Shown here in pieces: positions 14,986-24,665 of a stretch of 64,000 bases of DNA. The stretch is taken from NCBI GenBank assembly GCA_012728835.1, contig JAAYEJ010000045.1, positions 36,475-100,474 of the forward strand, in the 5' to 3' direction. The DNA comes from Candidatus Brocadiaceae bacterium (GTDB lineage Bacteria; Planctomycetota; Brocadiia; SM23-32). Each line of letters starts with the position of its first letter. Position 1 is the stretch's first letter. The position numbers and the translations under genes were made by a program. The notes under the pieces were generated by a model, which saw only the letters and a program-made list of their open reading frames with translations, was not told where the DNA came from and searched no databases.

Positions 14986-15294
14986 ATGGGCTCGAAACCT
15001 CAATCTCGCGTCCCCAGCCGAGGAGGCCTTCGCGTGACAGGCTGTTCGCGGCAGCTGACCTTCAGTTTCTATCAGGATAAGCGCCTGGTCGCCGATTTCA
15101 AGGGCGGCCAGATCTCTTCCGACGCCGGCCTCCTGTCCCCGCGCGCCCTCGATGAGAAGCTGGGTTGGACAGCCCAGGCCGCCGGCGTGATAGATGAACG
15201 CGAAGGCAGATCGGCCACGGGGCTCCGCCTCTGCCTTCTGCTCAACTTCGGAGCTTCGAAGGTTCAGGTGAAGCGTGCCGTCAACCGCCGATGA
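14986..15294 (+). pseudogene. IS1380-family transposase, N-terminal remnant only (about 100 aa of about 450)
   Basis: FKGGQISSDAGLLSPRALDEKLGW matches the conserved IS1380 N-terminal block (FDGGxLTSDGGL...LGL). It is then frameshifted or truncated. No DDE domain follows. Confidence 0.55.
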
Positions 15295-16671: not shown

Positions 16672-16762
16672 GCGCGGGAGACCGTTCCGGGGCCTCGCCC
16701 CCGGCTGTGTCGTGCCCGGCCCCGCCCAGGCGGGGCCGGCTTCGCTCAGGGAGGGATGTGGC

Positions 16763-18187
16763 ATGCCCGCCATGCCCAACGTTCTGTTCGTCACCACGGA
16801 CCACCTGCGGGCCGACCTGCTGGGCTGTGCCGGCGATCCCGTCATGCAAACGCCGGAGATCGACGCCCTGGCGCAGCATTCCGTCCGCCTGACCGACCAC
16901 TTCGCGCAGAACCCCGTCTGCCACCCGTCGCGCGCCTCCATGATGACCGGCCGCTACCCGTGCCACCACGGCGTCCGCTGGAACTTCAACGACCTGAGCG
17001 AGAACGAGATCACGCTGCTGGAGCACTTCAAGCGGAACGGCTACACGACGGCCACCATCGGCAAGTACCACCTGGACCAGCGGCGCTTCCGCGCGGCGAT
17101 CGACCACCACGAGGCGGCGTCGATCCGCAACATGAACCCGGACAACCCGTTCGTCCAGTACGTGAGGTCGCGGGGCCACGAGTACAGGACCGGATTCGAC
17201 CTGCCCCGGTTCCGCGAGCGGCTCGGCGCGGTGCCGCAGCCGGACCAGCCGGAGGACTGCCACCTCGACGCCTACGTGGGCAGGAAGACGTGCGAGTACC
17301 TGAAGCGCCTGGACGGCGGGCAGCCGTTCTTCCTCTGGCTGGGCTTCTACGGGCCGCACCACCCCTACGTGCCCTCGGGCCGGTTCGCGACGATGTATGA
17401 TCCCGACGAGGTGCCGCCCTTCCACCGGTCGGAGGACGACCTCCGCAAGAAGCCCGTCGAGTACCGCCTCTACCGGCAGGCGGAGGCGCACAAGTACTTC
17501 GGCTTCGCCGAGGCGTCCGAACGGACGTTCCGCGAGATGAAGGCCGCCTACTACGGCATGGTCTCGCAGATCGACTGGCAGCTCGGCCTCGTGCTCGAGA
17601 CGCTGCGGGAACAGGGTCTGGCGGACGATACCGTCGTGGTCTTCACCAGCGACCACGGAGAGTGCTGCGGCGACCACGGCATGCCGGCGAAGGCGCCGTT
17701 CCTGCTCGACTGCATGCTGCACGTGCCGTGCATCATCCACGCGCCGGGCGGCCGGCAGGGCCGGGAGTGCAGCGAACTGACGGAGTCTGTGGACCTGTAC
17801 CCGACGATCTGCCGCCTGGCCGGCCTCGACGTGCCGGAGTGCGTGCAGGGGCGGGACCTGAGCGCGCTGGTCACCGGCGATGCATCGAACTACCGGCCGC
17901 GCGAGGCCGTCTACGCGGAAGCCGTGGACAAGCGCTGCCTCCGCACGCGCGAATGGAAGCTCATCCACTACCCGAACAAGCCGTACGGGGAACTCTACCA
18001 CCTGGCCGAGGACCCGCACGAGCTGAACAATCTCTACCACGAACGCCCCGACGTGCGCGAGCCGATGACGGTGCAGTACTACCGACACCTGGACGCCATC
18101 GAGGACTTCAGGCACCCGAGCTACGCCCGCTTCACCGGCACCGATCCTGACGCAGGCGATGAAGTGACGCACTACCTGACGTGGTAG
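16763..18187 (+). CDS. formylglycine-dependent sulfatase (arylsulfatase family)
   Basis: C-x-P-x-R sulfatase signature (CHPSRASMMTGRYP). GGAGGG RBS. Confidence 0.85.
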   Translation: MPAMPNVLFVTTDHLRADLLGCAGDPVMQTPEIDALAQHSVRLTDHFAQNPVCHPSRASMMTGRYPCHHGVRWNFNDLSENEITLLEHFKRNGYTTATIGKYHLDQRRFRAAIDHHEAASIRNMNPDNPFVQYVRSRGHEYRTGFDLPRFRERLGAVPQPDQPEDCHLDAYVGRKTCEYLKRLDGGQPFFLWLGFYGPHHPYVPSGRFATMYDPDEVPPFHRSEDDLRKKPVEYRLYRQAEAHKYFGFAEASERTFREMKAAYYGMVSQIDWQLGLVLETLREQGLADDTVVVFTSDHGECCGDHGMPAKAPFLLDCMLHVPCIIHAPGGRQGRECSELTESVDLYPTICRLAGLDVPECVQGRDLSALVTGDASNYRPREAVYAEAVDKRCLRTREWKLIHYPNKPYGELYHLAEDPHELNNLYHERPDVREPMTVQYYRHLDAIEDFRHPSYARFTGTDPDAGDEVTHYLTW

Positions 18188-18314
18188 AACGGGCCGTCAG
18201 CCCACGTTCCCGGGCCCCTTCATCGCCGTGCTCTTCCAGGCCGGCCCCTGGAACGTCCGGACGCGCTGGATCACCCGAGCGGCGCGGACGCCGGGCACTG
18301 GGGAGGCGCCGGCG

Positions 18315-19193
18315 TCAGGCGTGGCGCGGAGCGCCGGCGCCGTCCAGCAGGAGCGTCTCGCCCACCGTGCAGCCGATGTCGCGGGCGATGACGGGGCACT
18401 TGGCCTTCAGCAGGAAGCAGACGGGCGCGGCCGCGTCGCTCAGCGTTTCGTAGTTCGCCTGTCCCTTGGCGATGACCAGGTCGGCCGTCGCAAACAGCGC
18501 GCGGAACTCCTCCGAGCAGTCCTCCAGCACGGTACCGGGGATGGCGCTGCCCGTGCTCACCACACGCAGCCCTTCCGGCAGGCCGGCCTGCGCGGCATCC
18601 TCCAGCGTCGCATCGTTGATGATGGGCCCGCCCTTGACGGCGAGCGTGACGTCCGCGCACGGGAGAAAGGGTATGAACAGGCCGTCGAAGACGATCTCCC
18701 CGGCGTTGTCGGCCAGGTAGAGGACGCGCCGGGCCGACTCGACCCGCCGACGGAACTTCGGCACGGGCAGGCCGCGGACAGGGGCGGCGAGCGTCTGCTC
18801 GATGGTGCGTTCGACCAATTGTTCATCGGGTTTCAGGTGGCGGCGCGCCCCCCAGTCCATGATGTTGCCGGCGATGGCGATGCGCAGGGCCGTCTCGAAG
18901 GGGTCGTCCGAGTTGCGTACGAGCAGGCGCATCCGCGGCACGAGCGCGTGCGCGTGAGCATTCGCGTCGTCCTTCACCTGCCGGTAGGGATCGGCGCAGC
19001 CGGTCTGCTCTCGGATCAGCCGGTGGATGCGGGCCGCCATCGGCGGCGGCGGTTCGTCGTCCGGGAAGTCGCCCAGGAACTGAAGCGCCCGGCGCATGAT
19101 GCGCATGCGCAGTCCATGGTCGTCGGTCACCATCGAGACGGCGTCGAGCGTCTGCTGCACGAAGCAGGGAAGGCATTCCAGGTAGGTCTTCAC
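18315..19193 (-). CDS. DUF89 / ARMT1-like (damage-control phosphatase family) protein
   Basis: Family-typical N-terminus YLECLPCFVQQ. GTG start with GGGAGA RBS. The upstream 200 codons of the track ORF are Arg-rich shadow. Confidence 0.65.
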   Translation of the reverse strand: MKTYLECLPCFVQQTLDAVSMVTDDHGLRMRIMRRALQFLGDFPDDEPPPPMAARIHRLIREQTGCADPYRQVKDDANAHAHALVPRMRLLVRNSDDPFETALRIAIAGNIMDWGARRHLKPDEQLVERTIEQTLAAPVRGLPVPKFRRRVESARRVLYLADNAGEIVFDGLFIPFLPCADVTLAVKGGPIINDATLEDAAQAGLPEGLRVVSTGSAIPGTVLEDCSEEFRALFATADLVIAKGQANYETLSDAAAPVCFLLKAKCPVIARDIGCTVGETLLLDGAGAPRHA

Positions 19194-19222
19194 GGGGGGT
19201 CTCCCTGGAGGAACTCGGCGGA

Positions 19223-21088
19223 TCAGCCGGCCCCGAGTTCCTTCTCCATCTCCTGCCAGAGTGCCCGCACGGCCGTCGCGGCCGGCCCGCGGCCGTGTTC
19301 CACGAGGTTGCGGCCGGCGCAGAGGGCTTCGTTGACATTGGGATCGAAGGGGATCCGGCCGATGACGCGGGCGCCGTATTGGGAAGCCATCGCGCGGATG
19401 CGCTCGGCCTGCTCCGTGTTGAGGTCGCACTTGTTGATGCAGATCACGCTCTGCACGCCGAAGTGCCGGCAGAGCTGCAGGGCACGTTCCATGTCGTGCA
19501 CGCCGGAGACGGTCGGCTCGGTGACGATCAGGGCCAGGTCGGCGCCCGAGACGGAGGCGATGACGGGGCAGCCGGTCCCCGGCGAGCCGTCGTTGATGAT
19601 CCTGGACTGCCCGCCGTCGGCGGCCAGGTCCGATGCGCGCTCGCGCACGTGCGTCACCAGCTTGCCGGAGTTCTCCTCGGCGATGCCCAGCCGCGCGTGC
19701 GACATCATGCCGTGGCACGTCTCGGAGACGTAGCTCTGCCCCGTGCAGTTGTCGGTGACGTCGATGGCCCCGATCGGGCAGACGTGTCCGCAGAAGCCAC
19801 AACCCTCACAGGCGAGGTCGTTCACGGCGTAGGCGGTGGGCGTTCCGTCGGCGGCATACACGGGATCGATGGCGTCGAAGTGGCAGTGCGCAGCGCACAC
19901 GCCGCAGGCGACGCACTGCGCGGAACGGATCGTCGCCTTCTTTCCACCGTAGAAGTCCTGCGCTTCCAGAACGCGCGGCCTGAGCAGCAGATGCAGGTCG
20001 GCGGCGTCCACGTCGCAGTCGGCCATGACCTTGTCATCGCTCAGTGCGGCCAACGCGGCCGTCACCGTCGTCTTGCCCGTGCCGCCCTTGCCGCTGATGA
20101 CGGTGCACTCCCGGTATGTCCTGCCGCTGCCCGAGCGCGGCGGGGCCGTCTCGGCCGGCGCTGTCTGCGTGTTCCATACCTCCGCCGGAGCGGCCGGCGG
20201 TTCCTGTGTCGACAGCTCGACCATGCGCCGGTAGACGGACAGCAGTTCGTCCGCCACCTCCGGGAAGGCGTCGATCAGCAGGTCGCCGCGCGAGTAGGTC
20301 TCCGCGTACTTCCGGCTGAACGGGATGCGGCCGATGATGGGCACGCCGACGCGGTCAGCGTATTCCCGGATGATGGTGTCCCGTCCGTCGGATCGGTTCA
20401 CCACGATGCCCGTGGGACGGCGCAACTCGAGCGCCAGGCCGACCGCCAGGCCCAGGTCGTTGAGCCCGAAGGGCGTCGGTTCGGTAACGAGGATCACCGC
20501 GTCGGCATCCCGCACGGCCTCCACCACCGGGCAGGCGGTGCCCGGGGCGGCATCGATCAGCGTCAGGCCCTCGTCGGCCGCGTGCTGCTTGACGCCGCGC
20601 ACGACCGCGGGCGCCAGGGGCTCGGCCACGTTCAGCAGGCCGTGGGCGAAGTAGAACTCGCCGGAGCCGGGGTCCGCCTCCACCGTGCCGATGACCACCT
20701 CGTGCTCGCTCAATGCGCCTTCGGGGCAGATGTAGCTGCAGAGCCCGCACGCGTGGCAGAGTTCGGAGAAGATGAGCACGTTGGGTGTCGGGGGACCGTC
20801 CTCGGACGGCTTGTTGACAACCGCGATGGCGTTGTAGTTGCACGCCTCCTGGCACTTCCTGCAGCCGGTGCACCGCTCAGGGTCCCATTGCGGGCGTCGC
20901 ACCGCGACGTCTTGCCTTTCGGAGAAGTGCGGGTGAACGAACAGGTGATCGTTCGGCTCCTCGACGTCGCAGTCAAGGAGGCGGACCGGCTGCCGGATGC
21001 TGTCGCCGCGCGTCAGGGCGGCGGCCATGTTGACCGCGACCGTCGTCTTGCCCGTGCCGCCCTTGCCGCTGGCGATGGTAATGACCAT
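19223..21088 (-). CDS. tandem fusion of two MinD/ParA-type P-loop ATPases, each carrying an inserted 2x[4Fe-4S] ferredoxin domain (COG1149-like)
   Basis: Two GKGGTGKTT Walker A motifs (aa 8 and about 330). Four CxxCxxCxxxCP ferredoxin motifs. Confidence 0.8.
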   Translation of the reverse strand: MVITIASGKGGTGKTTVAVNMAAALTRGDSIRQPVRLLDCDVEEPNDHLFVHPHFSERQDVAVRRPQWDPERCTGCRKCQEACNYNAIAVVNKPSEDGPPTPNVLIFSELCHACGLCSYICPEGALSEHEVVIGTVEADPGSGEFYFAHGLLNVAEPLAPAVVRGVKQHAADEGLTLIDAAPGTACPVVEAVRDADAVILVTEPTPFGLNDLGLAVGLALELRRPTGIVVNRSDGRDTIIREYADRVGVPIIGRIPFSRKYAETYSRGDLLIDAFPEVADELLSVYRRMVELSTQEPPAAPAEVWNTQTAPAETAPPRSGSGRTYRECTVISGKGGTGKTTVTAALAALSDDKVMADCDVDAADLHLLLRPRVLEAQDFYGGKKATIRSAQCVACGVCAAHCHFDAIDPVYAADGTPTAYAVNDLACEGCGFCGHVCPIGAIDVTDNCTGQSYVSETCHGMMSHARLGIAEENSGKLVTHVRERASDLAADGGQSRIINDGSPGTGCPVIASVSGADLALIVTEPTVSGVHDMERALQLCRHFGVQSVICINKCDLNTEQAERIRAMASQYGARVIGRIPFDPNVNEALCAGRNLVEHGRGPAATAVRALWQEMEKELGAG

Positions 21089-21129
21089 GGTACTTCACTC
21101 CCATGAACTCGGATGGCATACGACTCCGG

Positions 21130-22023
21130 CTATGCGTTCGGCGCGGCCGAAGGGGACTCGCTCGCTTCGATGATCTGTTCGACCACGCGGAGGAACGCCT
21201 GCCCCGCCGCGGTCTCGGCGCCACCCCTGACGAACGGCACGCCGTCCTCGCACGCCTGCATCAGCGTGGGGTCGAGCGGGATGCGGCCCAGGAAGGGCAC
21301 GCCGGCCCTGCCGGCCATCGCCTCCCCGCCTCCGGCCCCGAACACATCGGTGCTCTTGCCGCAGTGCGGGCAGACGAATCCGCTCATGTTCTCCACCACG
21401 CCGAGAACGGGCAGGTGGAGCTGCCGGCAGAAGCCGATGCACTTGCGCACGTCGGCCAGGGCCAGCTCCTGAGGCGTCGTCACGACGACGCCGCCGGTGG
21501 CGCCCGGTATGAGCTGGCAGACCGACAGCGGTTCGTCGCCCGTGCCGGGCGGCAGGTCGACGATCAGGTAGTCCAGCTCCCCCCATTCCACGTCCGCAAG
21601 GAACTGACGCAGCACGTTCATCTTCAACGGGCCGCGCCAGATGACGGCGTCGTCCTTCTGGCGAAGCAGGAACGCGATGGACATGACCTGAAGGCCCGGG
21701 CCACAGGGCGCGGGCAGGATCTTCTGCCCGTCCGAGAGCAGGTGAGTCTCGTCCAGCCCCAGGATCTTCGGCACGCTGGGGCCATGGAAGTCGGAGTCCA
21801 GCAGGCCCACCTTCCGGCCCGTCATGGCCAGGGCGACGGCCAGGTTTGCCGCCACGGTGCTCTTGCCGACGCCGCCCTTTCCGGACATGACGGCCACGGT
21901 GTGCTTGATGCCGGCCACCTGCTGCCGGAGGCGGCGCTCCTGTTCCTGACGTTCCTGCATCTGGTCTGGCCGGGCATTCCCGGCCCCGGAGGGCTCCTCA
22001 ACGGACTGCTCTGGGTCAGGCAT
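21130..22023 (-). CDS. mrp: Mrp/ApbC/NBP35-family Fe-S cluster carrier ATPase
   Basis: SGKGGVGKST Walker A. Conserved CPHC (GFVCPHCG) cluster-ligand motif. Confidence 0.85.
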   Translation of the reverse strand: MPDPEQSVEEPSGAGNARPDQMQERQEQERRLRQQVAGIKHTVAVMSGKGGVGKSTVAANLAVALAMTGRKVGLLDSDFHGPSVPKILGLDETHLLSDGQKILPAPCGPGLQVMSIAFLLRQKDDAVIWRGPLKMNVLRQFLADVEWGELDYLIVDLPPGTGDEPLSVCQLIPGATGGVVVTTPQELALADVRKCIGFCRQLHLPVLGVVENMSGFVCPHCGKSTDVFGAGGGEAMAGRAGVPFLGRIPLDPTLMQACEDGVPFVRGGAETAAGQAFLRVVEQIIEASESPSAAPNA

Positions 22024-22088
22024 GGGTTGTGCGTCCTTCCATAGATGTGGTCTTTCGGCACGTCACGTGATCGGCGCGCGGGGAGGCG

Positions 22089-22448
22089 TCAGCGGAAGAA
22101 CCCGTCCCGCCACCAGAGGAAGTAGCCCCAACGCGAGTCAAGGTTGTATCCGTCCGCGTCCGTGCCGGCCGGTGCTTCGTCGTCCGCCTCAAGGAGCATC
22201 CTGCACGGTTCGCCGAACACAAGCAGACGGTAGGCGCCGTTGATGGCGGCAAAGCGGCGGGCCGCATCGGGGTCGCCCGCCTTGCGGTCCGGGTGGTTCT
22301 CCTTGCAGGCCCGTCGCCAGGCACGCTTCAGTTCCTCGGGCGGGGCGTCCTCCGGCACGTCCAGGATGCGGCGCGCGATCCTGCGCGCGCGCACCTCGCG
22401 TTCGAGCCGGTCCTGGAACTGGGAATCGTCCACCCTCAGACCCGCCAT
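22089..22448 (-). CDS. small J-domain protein (about 120 aa)
   Basis: J-domain LKRAWRRACKENHPDRKAGDPDAARRFAAINGAYRLL with HPD. The start is at the internal MAGLRVDD. The ORF upstream of it is Arg-rich shadow. Confidence 0.6.
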   Translation of the reverse strand: MAGLRVDDSQFQDRLEREVRARRIARRILDVPEDAPPEELKRAWRRACKENHPDRKAGDPDAARRFAAINGAYRLLVFGEPCRMLLEADDEAPAGTDADGYNLDSRWGYFLWWRDGFFR

Positions 22449-22474
22449 CCTGTCGCTCAGGGCCGTGCGGCTTC

Positions 22475-22978
22475 CTATTCGAGCTCTGCGTCCTGCAGGT
22501 ATTGTCGAATGCACAGTTCGCACGCCTGCCGTTCGGAGCCTCCCCGGGCGAACCGGCGGAACTCCTCCAGCCAGCTGTCTCCCTCGTCGCGCCGGCGGCC
22601 GACAAAGGCGAGGAAGCAGACGAGCCGGTCCAGCGTCTCGCGATCGATCGCATGCTCCATCCTGCACGCCATGGAGTCGGATCGTTCGGCCTCCAGGCCG
22701 AGCACGCCCTCAAGGAAGTCCCTGATGACGCGGTGCCTCAGCAGGATGCGCCCCGCCCGTTCGCGCCCCTCAGGCGAAAGCGTGACCGGCTCATAGGGCT
22801 CGTAGTTGACGAGCCCCTTGTCGGAAAGGCTCTGGAGCGCCGTGGTTACGGCCGACTTCGCCACGTTGACCATGGCAGAGATGTCGCGCACGCGGGCAAA
22901 GCGCTTCTCCCGCTCAAGCCGGTAAATGGCCTCCAGATAGTCCTCCAACGCGGCACTCAGTTGCCCCGTCAACGCCAT
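22475..22978 (-). CDS. DtxR/MntR-family metal-dependent transcriptional repressor
   Basis: N-terminal HTH (LEDYLEAIYRL...RVRDISAMVNVAKSAVTTALQSL) plus a metal-binding/dimerisation domain. GGAGGA RBS. Confidence 0.85.
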   Translation of the reverse strand: MALTGQLSAALEDYLEAIYRLEREKRFARVRDISAMVNVAKSAVTTALQSLSDKGLVNYEPYEPVTLSPEGRERAGRILLRHRVIRDFLEGVLGLEAERSDSMACRMEHAIDRETLDRLVCFLAFVGRRRDEGDSWLEEFRRFARGGSERQACELCIRQYLQDAELE

Positions 22979-22997
22979 GGCCGTTCCTCCAACTCGT

Positions 22998-23050
22998 TGT
23001 TCTACTAACAGAACATTATACTCCCTGGCGAACATAATGCAAGCGAACGG
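22998..23050 (-). promoter_or_regulatory. sigma70-like promoter (TTGCAT-N16-TATAAT on the minus strand) with an 18-bp palindrome TGTTCT-N6-AGAACA between -10 and RBS of the DtxR-family gene; candidate autoregulatory operator
   Basis: Perfect inverted repeat at 22998..23015. Locally AT-rich in a GC-rich genome. A divergent TTGAAC-N17-TATACT motif for the + strand gene lies at about 23090-23125. Confidence 0.45.
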
Positions 23051-23173
23051 GCTGGTGAACGCGGCAGGCGCCACTGTTGTACCAGAACGCACGTTGAACG
23101 GCGGTCACGGCCGCACTATACTCCGGCGGTCTGAAGGCGGAACGGCCGGCACGATCGCTACGAGGGCTGACGC

Positions 23174-23617
23174 ATGAAGATCGAACACATGGGCTTCATC
23201 GTGCAGGCGCCGATCGACATGGGCGCCTGGTATGCGGAACACCTGGGCTTCCGGATCGTCGTCCGCAACGGCGACAACGACCAGGGCTCGACGTGGCTGG
23301 CCGACGATGCCGGCGCCCTTCTGATCGAACTGGGTGCGACACCGACCACTCCGCCGGTGGATTTCGCGTCGCTGGCGCCGCTCCAGGTGCATCTGGCCGT
23401 TGCCAGCGAGGACGCGGAGGAGGACAGCCGGCGGCTGCAGGCAGCCGGCGCGGCCTTCGTCGAGCGCTGCGCCAGCGCTCCGGGCGACACGATCCTGCTG
23501 CTGCGCGACCCATGGGGCATGGCGATCCAGCTCGTCCAGCGCGGTCCCGACAGCCCCTTCCGCCGTAGCGCTTCCTCAGCGTGCTACTTTGAGTCAGGGC
23601 ACTGCCATGCCGATTGA
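23174..23617 (+). CDS. VOC/glyoxalase-family protein
   Basis: Glyoxalase-like fold signature (MKIEHMGFIVQ...HLAV). Confidence 0.65.
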   Translation: MKIEHMGFIVQAPIDMGAWYAEHLGFRIVVRNGDNDQGSTWLADDAGALLIELGATPTTPPVDFASLAPLQVHLAVASEDAEEDSRRLQAAGAAFVERCASAPGDTILLLRDPWGMAIQLVQRGPDSPFRRSASSACYFESGHCHAD

Positions 23618-24665
23618 GACGGACGCAATTCTGGAGGTTCTGGCCGAACTGGTGGCCGCGCGAGGCCCGTGCGGCCATGAGGACGAGGTGGACGCCGTCT
23701 GCCGGCGCCATCTGGAGCCCTTCTGCGACGAAGTGACCACCGACCCGGCCGGGAACGTCGTCGGCCTGATCCGCGGCCAGAGCCGCGAGCCCGGCGTCAA
23801 GGTGATGGCGCACAAGGACGAGCTGGGCGCCTACGTGAAGCGCATCGAGGACGACGGGCGGCTCAGTGTGCGGCCCCGCGGGTTCCTGTATCGGCGCTTC
23901 GGAGACGGGCCGGTGGACGTTCTGCCGGACAGCGGGGAGCCCATCCCGGGCGTGATCGGGCTCGGCCCGCGCCATGCGTCCGAGAACCCCGGCGAGCCCC
24001 GCGACGGCAAGGAGGTCTCGTGGGAGGCCGTCCGCGTGAACACGCGCCTGAGCCGCGACGAGCTGCGGGTGCGCGGCGTTCACGCGGGCTCCCGCGTCGT
24101 GGTCGGTCGCAGCCGCCGGCGGCTGTTCTTCTTCGAGGACTGCGTGGGCAGCTATTTCCTGGACGACCGCGCGGGCATCGCCCTGATGCTGGCGGCGGGC
24201 GCCGAGGTCCGCCGGGGCGGCCCGCCCCCGTGTGACGTGCACTTCATCTGCTCGTCGTTGGAGGAGATCGCGGGCGGCGCGGCCGCGTATGCGTCGCACT
24301 CCCTGCCCGGGGAGATCCTGCTCGCGCTCGACGTCGCCCCGGCCGCACCCGAGTATGACGTCCCACTCGACGCGATGCCCGTCATCCTCGTCAGCGACCA
24401 GCAGTCGGTCTACTCCCGTGCGGTCTGCCGGGCCCTGGCCGAGGCCGGCGAGGCGGCCGGGACAGGATCACGCTACGCGGCCGTCGAGCATTACGGCTCG
24501 GATGCGTCCTGTGTGCGGAAGACGGGCGGCGCGGCGCAGATCGGCTGCCTGGGCCTGCCGACGGACAACACGCACGGGTTCGAGGTGTGTGTGCGGGAGG
24601 GCCTGACGAACTGCGCGAAGCTGCTGGCGGCCTACCTGCAAACGGGCGGTAGCGGTTCCGCTTGA
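23607..24665 (+). CDS. M42-family metallopeptidase (FrvX/aminopeptidase-like)
   Basis: M42 motifs: HEDEV, MAHKDELG, DDRAG, EEIAGGAA. Eleven-nucleotide overlap with the upstream gene. Confidence 0.75.
   Translation: MPIETDAILEVLAELVAARGPCGHEDEVDAVCRRHLEPFCDEVTTDPAGNVVGLIRGQSREPGVKVMAHKDELGAYVKRIEDDGRLSVRPRGFLYRRFGDGPVDVLPDSGEPIPGVIGLGPRHASENPGEPRDGKEVSWEAVRVNTRLSRDELRVRGVHAGSRVVVGRSRRRLFFFEDCVGSYFLDDRAGIALMLAAGAEVRRGGPPPCDVHFICSSLEEIAGGAAAYASHSLPGEILLALDVAPAAPEYDVPLDAMPVILVSDQQSVYSRAVCRALAEAGEAAGTGSRYAAVEHYGSDASCVRKTGGAAQIGCLGLPTDNTHGFEVCVREGLTNCAKLLAAYLQTGGSGSA

Follow-up and report, generated by a model that had tools for sequence, protein, structure and literature searches.

A DtxR-led gene block from a Brocadiaceae bacterium joins Mrp to a fused pair of MinD-ferredoxin ATPases and resembles a reduced ORP cluster

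Results

Five co-directional genes behind a DtxR-family regulator

We analyzed 64,000 nucleotides (nt) of a Candidatus Brocadiaceae bacterium (GenBank assembly GCA_012728835.1, contig JAAYEJ010000045.1, positions 36,475 to 100,474 of the forward strand), hereafter the window, in which five minus-strand genes encode a DtxR-type regulator, a small J-domain protein, an ATPase of the Mrp/NBP35 family, a double MinD-like ATPase with ferredoxin inserts and a DUF89/ARMT1-like phosphatase (Table 1). A first-pass annotation, made from the sequence without database searches, had proposed that these genes form a metal-regulated module for iron-sulfur (Fe-S) or metallocofactor trafficking. All five genes are present with the short gaps that it described (26, 65, 41 and 29 nt, from DtxR to DUF89), and profile searches with Pfam and NCBIfam upheld every one of its family assignments. 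Its upstream boundary, 23092, has to be moved: this is the GTG of the longest open reading frame (ORF), and the likelier start of the regulator is the ATG at 22978, which is preceded by GGAGGA and which gene callers also used for the 167-amino-acid (aa) protein on identical metagenome contigs.

The block is flanked by a convergent sulfatase gene and a divergent glyoxalase gene. A Shine-Dalgarno-like sequence stands ahead of each of the five genes, and a promoter and terminator scan of the minus strand inside the cluster returned no promoter-like or terminator-like site. Given the tight gaps, the Shine-Dalgarno sequences and the lack of internal signals, the simplest reading is that the five genes form one operon, transcribed as a single message from one sigma-70-type promoter. 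An Rfam scan of positions 17900-23700 at E ≤ 1 found no riboswitch or leader, its sole match being a chance one outside the operon. The identical five genes in the same order also occur on independent metagenome contigs; this exact order was seen solely in contigs of the source organism, and relatives reshuffle the content.

Table 1. Features of the gene block and its surroundings (positions in the window; aa, amino acids).
Feature	Position	Strand	Size or residues	Evidence
DtxR-type regulator	22475-22978	-	167 aa from ATG	PF01325 7e-16 (58.6 bits), PF02742 4e-16 (59.3 bits)
J-domain protein	22089-22448	-	119 aa	His-Pro-Asp (HPD) motif; PF00226 3.6e-12 (46.6 bits)
Mrp/NBP35 ATPase	21130-22023	-	297 aa	PF10609 1.7e-98 (329 bits)
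Double MinD-ferredoxin ATPase	19223-21088	-	621 aa	Pfam CbiA, ParA, Fer4 and motifs
N half of double ATPase	20210-21088	-	roughly aa 1-293	
Disordered linker of double ATPase		-	aa 308-322	
C half of double ATPase	19226-20116	-	roughly aa 325-621	
DUF89/ARMT1-like phosphatase	18315-19193	-	292 aa from GTG	PF01937 2.2e-72 (244 bits)
Sigma-70-type promoter and predicted operator	22998-23042	-		sequence reading and conservation in relatives
-35 element	23037-23042	-		TTGCAT
TGTTC half-site	23030-23034	-		inside the -35/-10 spacer
-10 element	23015-23020	-		TATAAT (perfect)
Inverted repeat	22998-23015	-		TGTTCT-N6-AGAACA
GGAGGA ahead of regulator ATG	22985-22990	-		
Sulfatase gene (convergent)	16712-18187	+		
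Glyoxalase gene (divergent)	23174-23617	+		
Sigma-70-like promoter toward glyoxalase gene	23094-23122	+		TTGAAC, 17 nt, TATACT
DDE transposase remnant	14986-15294 (approximate)	+	86-102 aa	PF13701 (weak)

The double ATPase and Mrp

Each half of the double ATPase is a SIMIBI (MinD/ParA-type) domain interrupted by an inserted 2×[4Fe-4S] ferredoxin domain. GKGGTGKT occurs twice in the chain, at residues 8 and 333, and CxxCxxCxxxC four times, at residues 73, 111, 392 and 427; the CbiA, ParA and Fer4 families each match it in several separate stretches. The halves are 31% identical to each other, and we take the protein to be of the COG1149 type. An AlphaFold2 model reached a pLDDT of 89 and a pTM of 0.88, with only the linker below 50. 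In a Foldseek search each half resembled MinD, FlhG, FleN, the ATPase-type HypB, NifH and BchL, and ArsA (9nbo, TM-score 0.39 normalized to the query) was the only fused-type match spanning both halves. A sequence search of the PDB found no chain of MinD with a ferredoxin insert. The first-pass annotation had called the fusion unusual, a view that does not survive the comparison with other proteins: at least 120 protein clusters of 600-650 aa span it entirely at 57-76% identity, those with a named source coming from Planctomycetota, Kiritimatiellia, Brocadiia, Krumholzibacteria and others.

Like ArsA, the protein consists of two homologous deviant-Walker-A halves joined by a linker in a single chain, and since the signature-lysine Walker A is kept in both halves (K9 and K334), an intramolecular nucleotide sandwich is plausible. 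In contrast, ArsA serves a membrane pump, carries no ferredoxin inserts and has a metalloid bound at its interface, and its sequence similarity is limited to the P-loop region. With NifH, BchL and CfbC the halves share the SIMIBI fold, a predicted nucleotide-sandwich dimer, Fe-S clusters and a Cys seven residues after the Walker B Asp; these enzymes, however, have one subunit-bridging [4Fe-4S] cluster, whereas each half of the window protein has an inserted two-cluster domain, the NCBIfam scores for the NifH family are far under cut-off, and the operon encodes no partner reductase component. In addition to the 16 cysteines of the ferredoxin inserts, three others, C40, C186 and C507, are invariant in 22 homologues. 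The last two stand seven residues past the Walker B Asp of their own half (D179 for C186, D500 for C507), the same spacing as between Asp125 and the cluster ligand Cys132 in switch II of NifH; together the three cysteines might provide an additional metal or cluster site where the halves meet. MinD itself was rejected as the identity of the ATPase (minD_arch, 105 bits against a cut-off of 201.75; minD_bact, 67 against 212.9), and no MinC or MinE gene was found among the neighbors of the operon in the window. The GenBank record NLW50590.1, one of the proteins NLW50589-NLW50593 of the same organism and described as a "(4Fe-4S)-binding protein" of 333 aa, begins at Met289 of the 621-aa ORF, which five other contigs carry intact; either the public annotation misses the N-terminal half or that assembly has a frameshift.

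The Mrp protein carries both motifs that define its family, a deviant Walker A and a conserved CXXC (PMC6345978), namely GKGGVGKS (residue 48) and CPHC (residue 218). Its best NCBIfam model is MrpORP, with 384.7 bits over model positions 3-255 of 365 (ApbC, 250 bits). The protein consists of the P-loop domain only, and its lack of the C-terminal Di-Nase domain explains why the MrpORP score stays under the cut-off of 450. The Mrp start in GenBank lies 21 codons later, which gives a protein of 276 aa.

Likeness to the orange-protein (ORP) system

The ORP complex of Desulfovibrio vulgaris includes Orp3, Orp4, MrpORP (Orp9) and the PF02579-family proteins Orp5 and Orp8 (PMC6345978; PMC8359166; PMC3897727); in strain Hildenborough Orp3 is DVU2103 and Orp4 is DVU2104, and Orp8 is the orange protein. 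Orp3 and Orp4 are paralogues with two [4Fe-4S] ferredoxin motifs each, Orp3 co-purifies with Orp4 and Orp8, and holo-MrpORP passes Fe-S clusters to apo-Orp3-Orp4-Orp8 in vitro (PMC6345978). Orp3 and Orp4 have a MinD-like C-terminal amphipathic helix, and MrpORP localizes to the poles (PMC6345978; PMC3897727). The orp genes form two divergent sigma-54 operons under the control of OrpR, a PAS/Fe-S redox sensor, and IHF (PMC6345978; PMC8359166; PMC3897727), and their expression is confined to very low redox potential (PMC8359166). The orange protein binds a Mo-Cu-S cluster (PMC6345978), and the physiological role given in the literature goes no further than "putatively involved in cell division" (PMC6345978, PMC8359166).

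The window shares with this system the co-encoding, in an anaerobic lineage, of an Mrp/NBP35 protein with CXXC and two paralogous MinD-like ATPases with two [4Fe-4S] motifs each, the ATPase pair being contained here in one 621-aa chain. This double ATPase looks like an Orp4-Orp3-type pair joined end to end. The first-pass annotation did not recognize the exact architecture as that of a described system; this view is not supported, since Mrp and paired MinD-2×[4Fe-4S] ATPases are the core of the Desulfovibrio ORP system and MrpORP is the best model for the window Mrp. A relative, locus L087, holds an orp gene set that includes PF02579 genes and a sigma-54 PAS activator. The window differs from the Desulfovibrio system in several respects: it has no PF02579/Di-Nase protein, either free-standing or fused to Mrp; its two ATPases are fused; its genes lie in one sigma-70-type operon with a DtxR-family regulator instead of sigma-54 operons under OrpR, no homologue of an OrpR-type enhancer-binding protein being found in the 64 kb; and it adds a J-domain protein and a DUF89 phosphatase. 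We regard the operon as probably a compact planctomycete variant of an ORP-type cluster rather than a new kind of system.

The control region

The -35 and -10 elements upstream of the regulator gene are separated by a 16-nt spacer, which contains a TGTTC half-site. The inverted repeat TGTTCT-N6-AGAACA (TGTTCTACTAACAGAACA), whose first T is the last base of the -10 element, also covers the expected transcription start. The first-pass annotation had pointed to this palindrome beside the regulator gene; it is the sole match in the window even at one mismatch (0.02 expected by chance), its layout is kept in relatives, and with translation starting at ATG 22978 it lies in the promoter/operator and not in coding sequence. 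Seven related loci were compared in the stretch ahead of their orthologous regulator gene. CTTGnnn-N2-TGTTC-N9-GTATAAT is common to all of them, and most continue with GTTC-N8-GAAC-(G/A)TCAA; the spacer half-site is found in seven of the eight aligned sequences, L007 having TGTTG. The arms of the repeat are GTTAGA/TCTAAC in L088 and ATGTT/AACAT in L091. That the arms change and the inverted repeat is nevertheless kept is the pattern of an operator for a dimeric regulator. Locus L097, with a different downstream gene, carries GTTC-N8-GAACGTCAAC too. A generic promoter scan missed the regulator promoter because its -35 element matches just three of six bases, and we accept it because it is conserved in relatives. 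The position of the repeat over the -10/+1 region suggests repression by the DtxR-family protein, and the proposal that the genes stand behind such a regulator is supported by the conservation of promoter and operator. On the other side of the 195-nt intergenic region a sigma-70-like promoter points toward the divergent glyoxalase gene (Table 1); the two promoters thus stand back to back, and control by the regulator might extend to the glyoxalase and peptidase M42 genes.

The DtxR-family regulator

The regulator has an N-terminal winged helix and a metal-binding dimerization domain, both matched by Pfam above cut-off. It shares with DtxR, IdeR and MntR this two-domain core, the Cys-x-x-Glu-His ligands of DtxR and a predicted inverted-repeat operator over the promoter. 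It differs from DtxR in having Asp in place of Met10, as in MntR, and in lacking the SH3-like domain, in place of which stands a tail of about 45 residues that Pfam does not cover and that contains C153-x-x-C156; a further cysteine is Cys122, in the motif F-V-C-F. The operator differs as well, having short GTTC/GAAC arms with 8-nt spacing where the known iron box is 19 bp. The best NCBIfam models are those of MntR (79 and 77 bits; cut-offs 153 and 138), and all equivalog scores are below cut-off. Alignment with MntR predicts a hybrid set of metal ligands, Asp13, Glu16, His82, Cys105, Glu108 and His109, with Asp13 at the position of DtxR Met10 and MntR Asp8 and C105-x-x-E108-H109 at that of DtxR Cys102/Glu105/His106. 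With Asp as in MntR and Cys as in DtxR, the metal cannot be assigned from the sequence.

The regulator belongs to a large subfamily, represented by homologues P0153-P0271, with 577 matches at E ≤ 1e-8. Among the 120 best homologues, CxxEH is present in 119, the FxCF-type Cys (F[VIL]C[FL]) in 105 and the C-terminal CxxC in 105, and the three-Cys tail could be a Zn or Fe-S site. The loci of three more distant homologues were looked up from the regulator itself. In L095 it stands with genes for Fe/cobalamin-type ABC uptake, FmdE, DUF89 and two DUF5320 proteins, and further downstream come a metallo-beta-lactamase fold, a radical SAM and a Di-Nase protein. In L096 (9001-10465) it has RACo on one side and glutaredoxin and Cpn10 on the other. 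In L097 (1-9507) it is divergent from an operon for RACo, CooC, CODH (Prismane) and ACS/CdhD and is itself followed by a gene for B12-dependent methionine synthase. Because these neighbors comprise RACo-type activases, CooC with CODH-ACS, and DUF89 with DUF5320, radical SAM and Di-Nase proteins, the subfamily seems dedicated to anaerobic metallo-maturation genes.

The J-protein

The J-protein, of the class III Hsp40 kind, is matched by PF00226 and by no other Pfam domain. Members of its family are 112-131 residues long, with an invariant H52-P53-D54 and an invariant aromatic C-terminal tail, Y-x-L-[DN]-x-x-W-G-x-F-L-W-W-R-D-x-[FY]-F, and the window protein ends in such a tail of 19 residues. 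A profile search of 1.84 billion representative proteins gave 292 matches at E ≤ 1e-10; about 100 of the best 150, estimated by eye, are full length. The comparison with HscB drawn in the first-pass annotation stands as an analogy, since, as in the HscB-HscA (ISC) system, a small J-protein is encoded with Fe-S trafficking genes and presumably recruits an Hsp70. It does not extend to identity: the score against HscB is 18.2 bits (cut-off 198), the HscB-type C-terminal IscU-binding helical domain is absent, a short aromatic tail taking the place of this client-binding part, and the operon has neither a dedicated Hsp70 gene nor IscU.

Orthologues of the J-protein lie within the DtxR-led operons of L088, L091, L092 and L093 and in a related operon of L094, whose contig begins downstream of the expected DtxR position; in L056 (Sedimentisphaerales) the J gene stands between two split MinD-ferredoxin genes. 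Other small J-only proteins, with Gly/Arg/Cys-rich tails, are encoded near ATPase genes in L027, L031 and L051, the L027 gene (5774-6142) 227 nt downstream of the ATPase pair and the L051 gene (10096-10392) a few kb away; their tails (for example GGCRRRGFGRGVCGKW) recall the Gly/Arg-rich parts of DUF5320 proteins. Judged from these gene neighborhoods, the association of J-domain and ATPase is recurrent but patchy across loci. Three members of the J family (P0285, P0305 and P0399) are fused to a class I S-adenosylmethionine (SAM) methyltransferase directly after the WGxFLWWRExFF tail. The fused enzyme resembles one that adjoins MinD-ferredoxin genes in L012 (7891-8673) and L056 (12149-12868), and the tail may be a docking or junction element for a SAM methyltransferase.

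The DUF89 phosphatase

The DUF89 protein aligns over its full length with PDB entries 2FFJ (Archaeoglobus; E = 3.7e-49) and 2G8L (Pyrococcus PH1575; E = 3.8e-40), including the motifs DNAGE and KGQANYE (KGxxNxE) and an N-terminal CxxC. Archaeal DUF89 structures have been assigned to subfamily I (PMC9062747), and the window protein is predicted to be a metal-dependent phosphatase of this archaeal/bacterial type. It scores below the equivalog cut-offs of the NCBIfam "damage-control phosphatase" models (187 against 440 and 172 against 500). DUF89 genes lie directly downstream of the ATPase genes in L030 (Anaerolineaceae), L067 (Clostridia), L085 (Omnitrophota) and the metagenome relative L090, and directly upstream of them in L069 (Methanocellaceae). 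A literature search found no paper tying DUF89 to clusters of the Mrp, MinD or ORP type. Subfamily I enzymes reportedly prefer nucleotides (Huang and colleagues, 2016).

Distribution and gene neighborhoods

A scan of one genome per species gave at least 525 matches, of which 80 loci were retained; they span many bacterial phyla as well as several lineages of archaea. By ORF-based count the double ATPase is fused at 18 of the 80 loci and an adjacent split pair at the other 62. ORFs within 6 kb of the ATPase pair were clustered and the cluster representatives checked with Pfam. Genes of the PF02579 family are found at 69 of the 80 loci, with about two genes per locus, and Mrp at 41; then come DUF5320 (36), DUF89 (24), metallo-beta-lactamase fold (23), NifU (20), DUF134 (18), radical SAM (17) and sigma-54 activator genes (15), followed by CGGC (11), Fur (8), DtxR (6) and the J-protein (2). 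By chance, a gene present in single copy would turn up within a given 12-kb span in far fewer than 1% of cases, so the associations are real. Their recurrence across phyla and in archaea speaks for a functional neighborhood rather than chance juxtaposition, and the proposal that the genes concern Fe-S or metallocluster handling is borne out by recurrent neighbors that are metal or Fe-S proteins. A literature search found no relevant paper on DUF5320, DUF134 or PF02579 neighborhoods, and the paper on IssA/thioferrate does not mention the neighboring ATPases.

Close relatives were taken as contigs with fusions 68-76% identical to the window protein or with J-protein orthologues. DtxR is the first gene in L087, L088 and L090-L093. 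In L087, whose fusion is 68% identical, it is followed by an opposite-strand gene, DUF1684, Di-Nase, Mrp, the fusion, a sigma-54 PAS activator and Di-Nase, with NifU further downstream. L088 (Planctomycetes bacterium SM23_32) has DtxR, ferredoxin, glutaredoxin, Cpn10, ferredoxin, DUF5981, DUF1684, J-protein, Di-Nase, a RACo-like ATPase and the fusion. L090 has DtxR, RACo, Mrp, pyridine-nucleotide disulfide reductase, response regulator, MFS, the fusion, DUF89 and a zinc ribbon, and L007 (Brocadiia) has DtxR, Di-Nase, Mrp, Di-Nase and the fusion. In L069 (Methanocellaceae) DtxR lies inside the ATPase cluster. The longer DtxR-led planctomycete operons (L088 2074-9881, L091 5049-12893, L092 3751-10078, L093 4446-7775 and L096 9001-10465) include a 94-aa Cpn10 (GroES-like) paralogue, a glutaredoxin/thioredoxin-like protein, small ferredoxins, DUF5981, DUF1684 and a RACo-like activase (Fer2 and ASKHA ATPase), and divergent to them lies a set of DUF1638, methyltransferase and rhodanese-disulfide-reductase genes. 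Two co-chaperone-like genes, for the J-domain protein and Cpn10, thus share one metallo-operon in planctomycete relatives.

Among these relatives the window operon is the most reduced version seen. A tblastn search of the 64 kb with 142 PF02579-type ORFs from the 69 loci and with the Di-Nase genes of the relatives found none, the sole matches being spurious ones to the ferredoxin inserts. The same kind of search of the 64 kb found no DUF5320, NifU, DUF134, radical SAM, enhancer-binding protein, CGGC, Fur, RACo, glutaredoxin, Cpn10, DUF5981, DUF1684, DUF1638 or methyltransferase gene. A remnant of a DDE transposase (Table 1) stands among sugar-dehydrogenase genes some 3 kb past the downstream end of the operon, in a stretch of lower G+C content (0.657 at 14-16 kb; about 0.70 over the whole window).

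Discussion

The explanation that we prefer, with somewhat more confidence than doubt, is that the locus is a metal-repressed, reduced ORP-type operon in which Mrp would load an ATP-driven pseudo-dimer and the J-protein would bring in Hsp70. Judging from the position and conservation of the sites, a repressor loaded with Fe2+ (or Mn2+) would bind GTTC-N8-GAAC over the -10/+1 region, and perhaps the spacer TGTTC too, so that the operon would repress itself under ample metal and be expressed under a shortage of metal or possibly of Fe-S supply. An Mrp dimer with a bridging [4Fe-4S] cluster on CPHC would supply the four ferredoxin-type sites of the double ATPase with clusters, as the Desulfovibrio homologues do in vitro and as the window proteins presumably do. 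The double ATPase, with both signature-lysine Walker A motifs intact, would be an ArsA-like covalent Orp4-Orp3-like pseudo-dimer, in which ATP binding and hydrolysis at the interface of the halves may be coupled to the hand-over of electrons or clusters to a client. The HPD motif of the J-protein would trigger the ATPase of DnaK/Hsp70, and its aromatic tail may dock on the machine or the client and aid loading or release. The DUF89 subfamily I enzyme might clear a phosphorylated by-product, most likely a nucleotide, a guess that is the weakest step of the model. With no PF02579 carrier in the 64 kb, the ATPase core would be either self-sufficient or partnered by carriers encoded elsewhere in the genome.

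Several observations weigh against this explanation. The defining component of the ORP system, the orange protein/PF02579 family, is absent from the window, and the Mrp, missing its Di-Nase domain, is below the MrpORP cut-off. The J-protein is rare beyond the planctomycete clade (two of the 80 genomes) and may, for that reason, be a lineage-specific add-on. The ligand set is mixed, so that both the metal that is sensed and the direction of the regulation are guesswork, and the place of a phosphatase in the operon is left without explanation. Finally, ferredoxin-type 2×[4Fe-4S] domains usually move electrons rather than donate clusters, which for the effector step favors a reductase.

Such a reductase or activase, ATP-dependent and akin to NifH, BchL, CfbC or RACo, would make the operon a reductive repair module, in which ATP hydrolysis lowers the potential of the Fe-S clusters, electrons reduce or reactivate an oxidized metalloenzyme or cofactor, and Mrp only matures the ATPase. 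We consider this unlikely, though it is the most credible of the other explanations. It draws on the inserts, which are classical 2×[4Fe-4S] ferredoxin domains, on NifH and BchL among the structural neighbors, on the invariant NifH-like Cys seven residues past the Walker B Asp of both halves, on the RACo-type ATP-dependent reductive activators encoded in the DtxR-led operons of relatives and next to CODH/ACS, and on the restriction of Desulfovibrio ORP expression to very low redox potential (PMC8359166). However, the operon encodes no acceptor enzyme, and the proposal overlaps with the reduced ORP-type operon that we prefer, differing in the effector step only. A larger pathway of the NifB/NifX/NifH kind for a heterometallic or unusual Fe-S cofactor, of which the operon would be the ATPase engine while the genes for PF02579 carriers, NifU scaffold, radical SAM enzyme and methyltransferase lie in other parts of the genome, appears to us improbable. 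Elsewhere the ATPase pair does lie amid PF02579, DUF5320, metallo-beta-lactamase, NifU, DUF134 and radical SAM genes at the frequencies given above, some members of the J family are fused to a SAM methyltransferase like the one beside ATPase genes, and the orange protein binds a Mo-Cu-S cluster (PMC6345978); none of these companion genes, however, is within the window, and the fused-type loci L009, L010, L012 and L015 (5-10 kb of flank on each side) are also without PF02579.

A MinD-like role, with the double ATPase acting in septum placement or polar localization and its Fe-S domains merely gating it by redox state, would fit MinD, FlhG and FleN as the closest solved folds, and it would fit the putative involvement in cell division, the polar localization of MrpORP and the MinD-like helix of Orp3 and Orp4 (PMC6345978; PMC3897727). 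We regard it as very unlikely, since no MinC, MinE or division gene lies in or near the operon, the MinD scores are far under cut-off and the recurrent neighbors are all metal or Fe-S proteins. Least probable of all is that five unrelated genes came to be adjacent and co-directional by chance. The exact order does occur only in contigs of the source organism, with content shuffled in relatives; yet the pairwise links recur across phyla and archaea far above the expectation for single-copy genes (DUF89 and Mrp at 24 and 41 of 80 loci), DtxR comes first in six related loci, J orthologues lie in the operons of L088 and L091-L093 and between the ATPase genes of L056, and the gaps in the window are tight, with no internal signals.

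Going beyond the reduced ORP-type operon that we prefer, one may picture a self-contained, Hsp70-assisted and ATP-driven machine for Fe-S loading or reductive repair that works without any orange-protein/NifX-like carrier; its induction would fall to a new DtxR subfamily, with a three-Cys tail that responds to Fe-S or redox status and not only to free metal. In this picture the widespread double-ATPase (COG1149-type) core of ORP clusters would drive an as yet unrecognized, anaerobe-specific route of metallocluster maintenance, and DUF89 and the dedicated J-protein would be parts of it that had escaped notice. This is a speculative proposal, to which we give little credence, about as much as to a fragment of a larger cofactor pathway and less than to a reductase.

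Anaerobic bacteria and archaea of very many kinds encode ORP-type ATPases. A version without the orange-protein family argues that the ATPase pair and Mrp are the functional core, and the natural Orp4-Orp3 fusion, which fixes the stoichiometry, should ease biochemistry and structure determination. The locus also brings out recurrent partners that are not discussed in the ORP papers cited here, namely DUF89, a dedicated J-protein and a DtxR subfamily that is rich in Cys and has a recognizable operator; it predicts that the operon would be induced on metal limitation, and it suggests in what physiological context prokaryotic DUF89 enzymes of subfamily I may work.

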